From: an uncultured Pseudomonadales bacterium
Lineage (GTDB): Bacteria > Patescibacteriota > Microgenomatia > UBA1400 > UBA12028
Direction: 5' to 3'
Assembly: GCA_964509365.1 (NCBI GenBank)
Contig: CAZDWN010000003.1
Location: 134,412-198,411 of the forward strand
DNA length: 64,000 bases
Positions 22,242 to 28,497 of this stretch are shown one piece after another. A program made the translations under genes and the position numbers. Under the pieces are notes generated by a model. That model was not told the DNA's origin and made no database searches. It saw only the letters and a program-made list of their open reading frames with translations. Position 1 is the stretch's first letter; each line of letters opens with the position of its first letter.

Positions 22242-22505
22242 ATGGCTCACGAACAAGAAATGGCTCAACTCATCTTTGACGACACGAATCGTCATGAAAA
22301 TGCTGCCAAAATGATCGATCGACTGACGATGGTGCTGAATTCAGACGCGGCAGTCGTCCTCATGGAAGCGACGATCGTACGATATGTAGGTAAAGAAGGA
22401 TCGCCGGATCCTCGGCTTCAGGTAATCTTTGGCGATGAACCGATCCTTATCGACCCAGCGATGGTCGCCGATGCGCTCAGTCGCTTGTTACTTCGTCAAC
22501 AATAA
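22242..22505 (+). CDS. small hypothetical protein, convergent with and overlapping the 3' end of the giant Cys-rich gene
   Basis: 87 aa from the first ATG; no RBS. The coding status is doubtful. Confidence 0.2.
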   Translation: MAHEQEMAQLIFDDTNRHENAAKMIDRLTMVLNSDAAVVLMEATIVRYVGKEGSPDPRLQVIFGDEPILIDPAMVADALSRLLLRQQ

Positions 22506-25500
22506 GGCATGATATGCGCCTTCTGCGATGAGTCCGGCATCAAACAATCGCACTGCGAGATCCTCTTTGGGTAAGAACTGCCGGCTGGCTTCCGCCGTAA
22601 CCAGATCATTCAACTCATCCACGGGGAGCGACCGCAGATAACCGTTAGAAAAGTTCATTTGAATGCCTCCGTACGGCATGTCCTTGAGCACAGCATCTCG
22701 TGCTTCTTCATACATGAGCGATCGATCGATCAAATTCCACCATGGCTCTCCAATCTTCTGACCCATGTCCATGGCATAGCAAACAGACGACTGAATATTG
22801 ATACACCCGGATTTGCTGATAATCGCGCCAAGTGATTCGTTGTTTAGATTGTCGAGGCCCCCTGCGTTTGCTACGATTCGCTGTGCAGTTTTTATGTCGG
22901 GAGCATTCAGGATATCTCTGGCCACGTTTGCTTCAGTCATCACTCCTCCGCCAGTTCCAAACCCAAAATCAGCGGGGGTCATGCCTGATTTCAGCTGTCC
23001 AGCAGATTGCAGTGATGAGAGCAGATCCAACTCGGTTTCACATGTCGGGCAGGTACTCCACACATACCCAGGAAACTTACGGAATATATCTGGAGTAATT
23101 TTCCCACCGGAGGCATAGAGCGAGTCCGCAAGTTCTTTCGGAAGTATTTGCTCGGCTTGCGCCAGTACCCCATCCGTACTGATTGTTTTCAATGTCGAAC
23201 TCGTCGTATTCACGAGTAATTTCCCAAATCCTACAAAGAAGTCAGCGACAAATGTCGTCGAGGAACCAGCTGCGATCGCTTCTTTGAGACAATCCTTTCG
23301 GCGTCCTGCGACGAGATCTTGCGTACAAGCAATATATGCTTGTACCGATTTGTTCGCGATATCTACACCACCGAGCGTGGCAGCGTCTGCCAGTTGGTAA
23401 AAACCCAAGACTGCACAGTCGTATGCAGAAGAGGAGCCTGTAGAGCAAGATTGTCGTAACGCATTCGTGCGTTCAATCCATTGCTTGAGTCCGGGGACAC
23501 TGCGACATTGGCTTCCAAACGGTATCGGAGATTCATCGACCAAACAGTAGCAACCTCTGCTATCCGAGCAATAGCTGTCTACGCTAATCGTTTTTTGACA
23601 GTACTGACCTGGCGAAATAAATCGTTCCTGGCAAGCACATGAGGTGACGGTGCTTGGACAAGTCGATCCCGCTGGAATGGTGACGGCGGTGGGAGTCCCA
23701 GAATTCTTACACGCGCAAGACTGTGGCTCTGTAGAAAGTAATGTGCGACCGCAGTATCCTTTGGAACCATTGGCGGCTACACATGAAGAGCCGACCGTTC
23801 CACCGAAATTACATGAATCTGGCCCACCCTGACAGGAGTCTGTGTCTCCCTTTACCACACAAGAACCAGTGTTTGTAAAATATTGGCAACCTGCATTACT
23901 GCATGTGGTTTTGTTTCCTATAAATTTTTCACATTGAGTACTTGGATCCGTTGTGGAAACTGGTGGAAGGGTAGGCAGTACTTTCGGCTTCTGACCACAG
24001 TACGTCAAAGAGTTTGCGGTATAGGTGCTACTGCCCGAACAGCACACGGTTGTGGAGTTTGAAGGTTTGACTTTATTATCCGCGATGCAAAACAGCGGGA
24101 TACATTTGTTGTTGGTGGAATCATACTGGCACGCTCTGCCTGGCGCCTGACAGTCTGCAGTGTTTGTAAATTGACTGCACGAGGACGTCTGTCCAATACT
24201 CGATGAGCAATTATTGCTCGCTATTTTTTGAATCGAAGCATCTGCTCCGCTGCAGATAAGCTCAGGGGTACTGGCGCGTTGATTTGATTGTGATTCACTG
24301 AGCCACCTTCCTTTGCCGTTGCACCAGACACTACTAAAGGAAGATTGCGTTGCTCCGTCTGCGCATTGATTGCCACATTGCCATTGACCTGCGGGACACA
24401 AACTCGTTATTTTTGTCCCACCACAAGTACTCCCATTTGGTGTCGTACTTGCGTTTGAGCATGACTGCGGACATTGGCACAAACCAGTTTTGCTATCACA
24501 CACTTGTGTACACGAAGTAATTGGAGCTGGCTTGTTTATGCAAATTCCCCCGGAAAAAAAAGAACTGCTCACCCAGCTGCAAGAAGAGTTCAGGGCACAG
24601 CTAATGCGATTGGTTGATGTTGTGCAATCCAAAGCAGCTTTTTGACCCCCACAAGTACCTCCTGTGCCCAGAGAGATTGAGGCTTTGTTACAATTTGCGG
24701 GACAAAAACAAGCTCCTGAAATTGGACACGGTGTCGTACATGTCCCCAAGTCATAGGTAGCGACAATCGTTTTTTCTGCGCATCGATTATTGTTCCATGT
24801 ACAGTTCGGAGTATATCCGCATGTCATCGCATCGACAATTTGCACACAAGTCTTTGGAGTCGTACTCACAGGCTGTGGAGCAACACATTTATTTGTGGCG
24901 CTGGAGCACACTCCACTTGCACACGCGAATGTCTTGAAATCATAGCCAGTCGCAGTCGGTGTACAGGCACGAACGGTAGTCGCGTTGACGCAGCTCGATG
25001 CACCAATCTGACACTTTATCTCGCTTGCAGGGATCGTGTCCCCACAACAACTAGCGACACCAGATGGACAGATGCTGCAACTCGTAGATGGATATTTTCC
25101 CAATGCACTGCATGATGAGACCCCAAAAATACATTGCGCGCTATTTGTCGAAGGGGTAACACCTCCGCACGTCACATTGCAGACGTTGGTGATACATTGA
25201 GACGCATTGGTACATGTATTGCCATCAGCAAGTTTCGGACAGCGGACTCCTCCCGGGACACTGACATTTTGGCCATTTTGCTTTGGGCAGTTGCATTGAG
25301 CGAGACCAGCGAGACACATCTGACCGGCCACGAGTGTCGGGATCTGCTGCTTCATCGCCACACTGCAGCACACTCCGGTGAGACCACCTAGACATGATTT
25401 CTGTGAATCGACGACCCCATTGTTGAGCGAGCACTCCGTAGCTGTAGGGACACAGTTGAGTGGATTGCACTCGGTCGGCGTCGAACTGACTGCATTTTTC

Positions 25501-28447: not shown

Positions 28448-28497
28448 TACTGTAACAATAGGGAAGAATGCCTGTGCGGTCAATGAGAACTCTGAAG

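Follow-up and report, generated by a model that had tools for sequence, protein, structure and literature searches.

A one-base frame change divides a gene for a giant, cysteine-rich, membrane-anchored protein at a strain-variable locus

Two overlapping cysteine-rich open reading frames

A pair of overlapping open reading frames (ORFs) was analyzed in a 64-kb stretch of contig CAZDWN010000003.1 (positions 134,412 to 198,411), referred to here as the window. Both ORFs lie on the minus strand. The upstream ORF (25637-28483) encodes 948 amino acids (aa) from a TTG codon, or 936 aa from the ATG at 28447 that was used for the NCBI protein (P0012), and the downstream ORF (22488-25778) encodes 1,096 aa from a TTG, the NCBI protein (P0001) comprising 1,063 aa. 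These ORFs overlap by 142 nucleotides (nt) in different frames, with the downstream frame being the −1 frame relative to the upstream frame, equivalent to one missing base. The coordinates, strand, lengths and overlap of the two ORFs were in agreement with an initial annotation made from the sequence, as was its description of a protein with about 10% cysteine: Cys accounts for 10.0% of the upstream ORF and 8.8% of the downstream ORF (96 residues), against a background of 0.88% over the remaining stop-to-stop ORFs of 200 aa or more that the window contains. No further long Cys-rich gene was detected within the 64 kb. Neither ORF was recognized in Pfam, NCBIfam or PDB searches, in line with the earlier statement that the repeats were not recognizable as any described family.

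The upstream ORF contains a hydrophobic segment at residues ~33 to 56 (FIDVAAIAILILVSAAITVPLTYF; 28316-28387, minus strand), which is preceded by basic residues and was read, as originally proposed, as a signal-anchor. This segment is kept in the ortholog P0013, described below, and a hydropathy scan found no second hydrophobic stretch in the 1,998-aa protein obtained by joining the ORFs. The start of the downstream ORF sits two codons past a stop codon (TGA, 25784-25782), no hydrophobic segment follows any of its candidate starts, and there is no signal peptide, as had also been reported. A signal peptide or anchor is present at the start of the homologs P0002, P0003, P0004, P0006, P0007, P0008 and P0013, of an intact ORF in locus L001 and of the second Cys-rich gene of locus L006. 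P0005 and P0009 have neither, and these two calls may be 5′-truncated.

Evidence for a single reading frame

For the joined model, the upstream ORF was followed to ...SPVAGK (codon AAG, 25756-25754) and fused to the downstream frame at AYCVRTC..., placing the junction between residues 910 and 911. Residues 1 to 910 of the upstream ORF thereby form the first half of a giant protein, and its final 38 aa, reading HIVCAPAVGISFANQ..., are an out-of-frame read-through. The joined protein of 1,998 aa contains 190 Cys, an even number (9.5%), with a content of 11.3% over residues 57-1665.

Codon-usage log-odds scores, trained on both ORFs outside their overlap, exhibited a move in preference from the upstream to the downstream frame at ~25770-25740. 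Residues 836-1006 of the joined model, which span the junction, and residues 1056-1213, which are encoded entirely by the downstream ORF, formed one collinear local alignment with a score of 165; composition-preserving shuffles scored 55.8 ± 9.7 (z = 11.3). When this alignment was split at the junction, the parts before (z = 3.1) and after (z = 7.3) matched consecutive parts of the reference copy. The 38-aa tail of the upstream ORF lacked family character and gave a z of −0.8 against the same copy, bearing out the initial observation that this tail does not continue the style of the remainder.

Three modules were found on both sides of the junction, namely K (at residues 347, 472 and 879 before it and 1084 after it), B (659 before; 948 and 1155 after) and D (707 and 771 before; 1362 after). 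Small profile hidden Markov models placed K at 879-905, in the upstream frame, and B at 948-1000, in the downstream frame, a spacing of 69 aa across the junction as compared to 71 aa in the intact copy (K at 1084, B at 1155). A one-base change within a module accounts for this conserved spacing, whereas two juxtaposed genes do not. The switch in codon usage, the collinear modules, the sharing of K, B and D and the lack of an export signal in the downstream ORF therefore indicated that each ORF is one half of a single gene encoding a ~2,000-aa, ~10%-Cys, N-terminally anchored protein, as the initial annotation had proposed. For annotation purposes, P0012 and P0001 should be treated as one disrupted gene.

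The one-base change was located between 25781 and ~25745 on the minus strand. This interval is bounded by the TGA at 25784-25782, which closes the downstream frame, and by AYCVRTC, where module similarity in the downstream frame begins, and it takes in the region of 25750-25775 first named for the transition. A single candidate slippage site (A_AAG) lies within it, at GGA-AAG (25759-25754).

Modular anatomy of the joined protein

The N-terminal stalk (residues 16-818; 26030-28438, minus strand) matches the stand-alone 859-aa ortholog P0013 (alignment A4). Beyond this stalk, a module set of ~165 aa is present in two copies. Copy 1 (residues 836-1006; 25467-25978, minus strand) comprises a CxCP unit, K, a degenerate first half of module A and then B, and spans the frame change, while copy 2 (residues 1056-1213; 24846-25319, minus strand) is uninterrupted, with K at 1084-1108 followed by A (residues 1110-1205; 24870-25157, minus strand), which contains 12 Cys. 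An AlphaFold model of module A had a mean predicted local distance difference test score (pLDDT) of 84.3 but no convincing structural neighbour, making this module a reasonable target for structure determination.

The ~50-aa repeat with the signature CPAGQWQCGN...RWKYE...SCGG that had been noticed in both halves corresponds to module D and is real. Two tandem copies are encoded by the upstream ORF (residues 707-758 and 771-822; 26018-26365, minus strand) and a third by the downstream ORF (residues 1362-1418; 24231-24401, minus strand), the copies at 772 and 1363 exhibiting 53% identity over 43 aa. Module D is also present in P0002, P0013 and P0006, the last having three copies. The third copy lies within a run of modules P (twice), D, Q and R (residues 1209-1665; 23490-24860, minus strand) that is common to P0002, the L001 ORF and the P0003 group. 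The other elements of the early description were likewise located in the joined model: a GxxCxxxxDCxTGxCN motif occurs four times (residues 347, 472, 879 and 1084), and PAPAP and TTPPTTGG linkers lie at 116-122 and 170-187. Pro/Thr linkers separate the modules, whose Cys counts are all even (4, 6, 10 or 12).

A rare family with a conserved neck and a variable C terminus

A word-index search with the whole downstream ORF returned only the query, a failure to find P0002 that was attributed to low-complexity words taking up all of the 8,000 candidates allowed; sub-regions were used afterwards, and P0002 was recovered by HMMER. Across 1.84 billion cluster representatives, the full HMMER scan with this ORF detected 9 proteins, one of them the query itself, and sub-region searches brought in P0010, P0011, P0012 and P0013. 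Profile searches with alignments A1 and A4 detected no relatives in metagenome contigs or viral contigs, and a scan of genome contigs detected one metagenome-assembled genome (CAZMSJ01) with two paralogs. No contig matched P0001 or the GAPDH of the window exactly. The family is very rare.

P0002 (988 aa, 47% identity) and the intact 1,019-aa ORF of L001 match residues ~1205-1835 of the joined model, and both have their own signal peptides and N-terminal repeats unlike those of the giant protein. The block at 1513-1835, consisting of module R and a segment termed here the neck, is also found in P0003, P0010 and P0011, and the neck alone in P0009. This neck (residues 1665-1835, GLKQWIERTNALRQSC...CPTCETELDLL; 22980-23492, minus strand) is Cys-poor and predicted to be helical and is kept in seven proteins, among them P0002, P0003, P0009, P0010, P0011 and the L001 ORF. 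An AlphaFold model of the neck and C-terminal domain, based on a three-row alignment, was helical in the neck but of low confidence (pLDDT 38) and was unusable for the C-terminal domain.

Homology to P0002 and P0003 ends at ...CPTCETELDLLSSLQ, ~residue 930 of the downstream ORF. The final 163 aa form a C-terminal domain (residues 1836-1998; 22491-22979, minus strand) with only 2 Cys, for which no match was detected in Pfam, NCBIfam or the PDB and into which no alignment extended among the 1.84 billion representatives. In the P0002 and P0003 groups, the neck is followed by a C80-peptidase-like domain, P0003 scoring 24.8 bits against Pfam Peptidase_C80 (curated cut-off, 23.8). Two proteins have a weakly kinase-like C-terminal domain, P0009 with 22 bits and the product of the second L006 gene with 13.9 bits, scores that fall short of the Pfam cut-off, and the C-terminal region of P0005 contains HExxH. 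A degenerate C80 domain was considered for the giant protein, which has SSVCYA where P0002 has LSVCYA, and was rejected: Pfam was silent for this protein, and a C80-like profile built from five homologs scored 1.1 bits on the C terminus.

Lengths in databases were found to be a poor guide to this family. P0011, a Joint Genome Institute call of 496 aa, is the 3′ half of the intact L001 ORF (8432-11491, plus strand), which has a signal peptide; across its Cys-rich 5′ half, the gene caller had instead annotated a spurious ORF of 255 aa on the other strand. The family's Cys-rich genes are prone to mis-calling, and their database lengths are unreliable.

In two loci, L004 (5723-9392) and L001 (4772-8447), three conserved genes lie ahead of the P0002-type Cys-rich gene. 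They encode a transglutaminase-core protein, a membrane protein resembling type IV secretion system pilins and a beta-helix protein, and the stop codon of the beta-helix gene overlaps the Cys-rich gene's start. The window contains no such trio.

Variation of the locus between relatives

The ortholog P0013 is located in locus L006 of Logan run ERR14064714. In a tblastn comparison, residues 16-818 of the joined model matched L006 2655-5210 with 52% identity; this homology ends at ...GISCGG, and the stop codon of P0013 lies 31 aa further on. P0013 sits behind the same PEGA+SH3 gene as the giant gene and is followed after 5 nt by a separate 848-aa Cys-rich gene, which has its own signal peptide (MNVFRYWTGILIVLILAVIFAHPLTANA) and is not orthologous to the downstream ORF of the window. 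A second relative, L007 (Logan run ERR2985256), shares synteny with the window, with a nucleotide identity of 71 to 77%, from an NTP-transferase gene through CAP, PGK, GAPDH and PEGA/SH3 genes, with synteny resuming at CarboxypepD_reg and PMT_2. Between these blocks, a 9-kb interval of the window (19470-28500) is replaced in L007 by 2.5 kb of unrelated sequence (13999-16510), as determined by blastn and tblastn, and no trace of the giant gene was detected in L007 by tblastn. A single long ORF had been suggested as something to look for in relatives; L006 has an 859-aa gene and a separate 848-aa gene, and L007 has neither half. No ortholog shares the split.

While the PEGA+SH3 lipoprotein gene is conserved, the content downstream of it differs in all three genomes. 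In the window, the interval contains, besides the giant gene, two small membrane ORFs and an ORF resembling DUF2807 (21076-22083). The corresponding region of L006 (1565-10729) contains a Fic gene, the two Cys-rich genes, SIMPL and DUF1616 genes and another Fic gene, and that of L007 contains small ORFs only. No counterparts in L006 or L007 were detected for the other interval ORFs tested. As L006 and L007 differ at this locus, the giant gene is accessory and lies in a hot spot. This variability agrees with a remark made in 2016 that strain variation in large Cys-rich proteins is a main source of genotypic variety (PMC4736985).

A tRNA-Cys(GCA) gene is located at 29532-29603 (minus strand), ~1 kb upstream of the giant gene. 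L007 carries a copy that is 96.7% identical (11665-11736, minus strand) and inverted relative to its flanks, so that a small inversion or rearrangement separates both genomes. A functional link between this tRNA and the Cys-rich gene was considered and set aside: the tRNA is also found in L007, which lacks the giant gene, and the adjacency looks coincidental.

Nature of the frame change

The frame change is probably mundane. We tentatively favour a real and very recent one-base deletion, an explanation that we regard as having slightly less than an even chance of being correct. No other split gene was detected among the other window ORFs of at least 150 aa scanned against Pfam. Over ~20 kb of synteny, the lengths of the NTP-transferase, CAP, GAPDH and CarboxypepD_reg ORFs match those in L007 to within a few residues; larger differences, mostly due to longer upstream starts in mechanical ORF calls, were seen for PGK, polyprenyl synthetase, M23 and PMT_2. 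The site itself holds only AAA and no long homopolymer. Together with the shortness of DNA repeats, these observations make an assembly with errors throughout less likely. The longest DNA repeat is just 39 nt, with 87% identity, and a mis-join of one module copy to another was therefore rejected. The overlapping ORF pair at 37914/38801 was examined as a further candidate frameshift and proved to consist of two different genes, UbiA and GT4; a second overlapping pair (33416/34503) comprises a polyprenyl synthetase ORF and one without a Pfam match. With a real deletion, the cell would make just the anchored stalk of 948 aa, about the size of the 859-aa ortholog, and the remaining 1,088 distal residues, whose frame still contains no stop codon, would be silent. 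The 948-aa product would still be a plausible working protein, as the ortholog is a stand-alone gene of 859 aa.

Several observations weigh against a single anchored gene of the Candidate Phyla Radiation (CPR) that has been broken by a deletion. The pre-junction part of the module alignment is only modestly significant, at least 1 in 500 shuffles having scored higher, and in L006, the closest relative, this position is occupied by two separate genes, showing that two-gene layouts exist in the family. No stop codon interrupts the 1,096 codons of the downstream frame, and every family-conserved Cys in it is intact, so that any inactivation must have been very recent, and this state fits an assembly or consensus error, or slippage, equally well. 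The CPR (Patescibacteria-type) source was inferred from gene content only, and the only named homolog-bearing metagenome-assembled genome, CAZMSJ01, carries the label 'uncultured Gammaproteobacteria', although this label may be wrong.

The strongest competitor to a real deletion is an error of assembly, consensus or sequencing, in which case the gene of ~5,995 nt would be intact and the full 1,998-aa protein would be made. We consider this possible but less likely than a real deletion. The long open downstream frame matches every family module strongly, as expected of an undamaged gene; the region is strain variable, which is where a metagenome consensus is least reliable; and the collections contain a single copy of this genome's proteins, with no independent assembly of the strain. 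The absence of any further split gene in the 64 kb, the equal lengths of several syntenic genes in L007, the presence of just an AAA run at the site and the lack of a DNA repeat of >39 nt that could cause a mis-join all speak against such an error.

A_AAG is a known slippery tetranucleotide in bacteria. A programmed −1 ribosomal frameshift at GGA-AAG would yield mostly a 948-aa bare stalk and, in a minority of cases, the 1,998-aa stalk with its head. The required shift is exactly −1, and a slip of tRNA-Lys from AAG to AAA would yield ...SPVAGK-AYCVRTC..., the join required by the module alignment. The surrounding 131 nt fold somewhat better than shuffled sequences (z = −2.24), and both products would be plausible proteins given the 859-aa stand-alone ortholog. 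However, the heptamer A-GGA-AAG is not a canonical X-XXY-YYZ, with only the A-site tetranucleotide fitting; the slip site falls inside the predicted hairpin instead of 5 to 9 nt ahead of it; the zero-frame stop is 38 codons away; and the junction is shared by no ortholog, as the L006 ortholog ends earlier and L007 lacks the gene. Programmed slippage is, on balance, improbable, and we allow a similarly small chance for some explanation other than those set out here. A built-in switch, operating by slippage at A_AAG or by reversible loss and gain of one base within the population and producing an abundant 948-aa stalk and a rare 1,998-aa form with a strain-specific effector head at its C terminus, is a longer shot again; if true, it would place a switch in a family of surface-displayed, swappable-head proteins used by an ultra-small episymbiont to engage its host.

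Two separate functional genes, a 948-aa anchored protein and an independently translated protein of ~1,060 to 1,096 aa, would match the two NCBI proteins and the two adjacent Cys-rich genes of L006, but this arrangement is very improbable, as the second L006 gene has its own signal peptide and starts past the end of the first whereas the ORFs here overlap, no downstream start precedes a hydrophobic segment, a 96-Cys protein in the cytoplasm is implausible, the last 38 aa of the upstream ORF lack family character and the module set is collinear across the junction.

Relationship to known surface proteins

An attached life on other cells is generally assumed for ultra-small CPR bacteria and, to our knowledge, almost nothing has been established about the molecules that make this contact. 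Giant Cys-rich surface proteins of such bacteria were flagged in 2016 and are still uncharacterized. Large Cys-rich extracellular proteins of Candidatus Peribacter riflensis average 1,655 ± 751 aa and 7.2 ± 2.4% Cys (Anantharaman et al. 2016, PMC4736985); a role in attachment was proposed for them, and their genes form a 14-gene cluster (PMC4736985). The protein described here resembles them in size class (1,998 aa), Cys content (9.5%), possession of an anchor with a predicted extracellular location, lack of functional annotation and strain variation, a likeness of description and not of sequence comparison. In common with that class, it exceeds ~1,000 aa with several percent Cys and has a membrane anchor with its bulk predicted to be extracellular. 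It differs in being encoded by a single gene in the 64-kb window rather than by a cluster, and modules, neck and variable C terminus are resolved here. A Peribacteria origin was not traceable for any of the 9 HMMER matches. The view that a protein of this kind is unusual for a bacterium was, therefore, overstated: giant Cys-rich extracellular proteins had already been described in CPR Peribacteria (PMC4736985). The present locus supplies a concrete anatomy, consisting of a membrane anchor, a disulfide-module stalk, a conserved neck and a C-terminal domain swapped between homologs.

Polymorphic toxins and MARTX-type exoproteins consist of a secretion signal, a repetitive stalk, a pre-toxin region and a swappable C terminus, with Peptidase C80 mediating self-processing. 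The family resembles them in that stalk and neck are conserved across homologs while the C-terminal domains behind them are unrelated, and in the above-cut-off C80 match of P0003. It differs in that no toxin or C80 profile matched the C-terminal domain of the giant protein and in that the stalk is built of disulfide modules and not of RHS, filamentous-haemagglutinin or RtxA repeats. No immunity-like gene was found on the same strand downstream; a convergent 90-aa ORF lies there in the window and a convergent uvrA in L001 and L004.

Giardia variant-specific surface proteins form a variable surface coat with ~12% Cys. High Cys content, inferred surface display and strain variability are shared with these proteins as a functional analogy only; the giant protein has 3 CxxC motifs among its 190 Cys, its anchor is N-terminal and not C-terminal, it is bacterial, and there is no homology. 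No significant profile match was obtained with the Myxococcus cysteine-rich repeat, EGF, PSI, Dickkopf/colipase-like or CBM14 (chitin-binding) families; a weak resemblance to CBM14 was noted. A G-F-I-D/E sequence precedes the anchor (28387-28400), reading AG-FIDVAAIA here, SG-FIDVAVIA in P0013 and KG-FIETIPIV in P0007. The similarity to G|FxxxE, the class III signal of prepilins, is superficial: an acidic residue occupies +3 and not +5, and prepilin N-terminal models of Pfam and NCBIfam gave no match at E ≤ 1.

Proposed working of the protein

The anchor, the module anatomy, the conserved neck, the variable C terminus and the variable locus, established by the comparisons above, suggest how the protein could operate. 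The N-terminal signal-anchor would hold it in the cytoplasmic membrane with its N terminus inside the cell. Some 1,600 residues of small Cys modules would be oxidized outside the cell, forming disulfide bonds and giving a long, rigid, protease-resistant stalk that could present the variable C-terminal head to a touched host cell or polymer. CPR genomes are reported to encode MdbA/DsbA-like proteins, often beside VKOR (bioRxiv 10.1101/335083). We infer that the protein is an extracellular disulfide stalk whose head contacts the surroundings. Because the genome looks CPR (Patescibacteria-type), the head probably targets a host cell or a surface glycan. The protein may act as an adhesin or S-layer component, as raised in the initial annotation. 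A gene that is gained, lost or rebuilt between close relatives behaves as would be expected of a determinant of host specificity.

Neighbouring genes

Genes at 35509-36468 and 57072-58340 (both plus strand), together with a small-genome gene content, are suggestive of a CPR/Patescibacteria source for the contig. The window also encodes a CAP-domain membrane protein, of a family reported to be almost CPR specific, a lamin-tail-domain protein and many PMT_2 glycosyltransferases; no rRNA or ribosomal protein genes were detected in it. Three tandem PMT_2 genes (GT-C, protein-mannosyltransferase-like; 508 to 550 aa) are located at 13534-18407 (plus strand), just beyond the variable interval, as is a block of glycosyltransferase and polysaccharide genes at 5723-13425. 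Given the Thr/Pro linkers and the nearby PMT_2 genes, O-glycosylation of the giant protein could be imagined, although this is speculative.

The convergent 90-aa ORF (22233-22505, plus strand) and the giant gene share the final 18 nt of the latter. The best sigma-70-like match of the region (10 of 12 positions, 22205-22233) precedes this ORF, which has neither a Pfam match nor an L006 or L007 counterpart.

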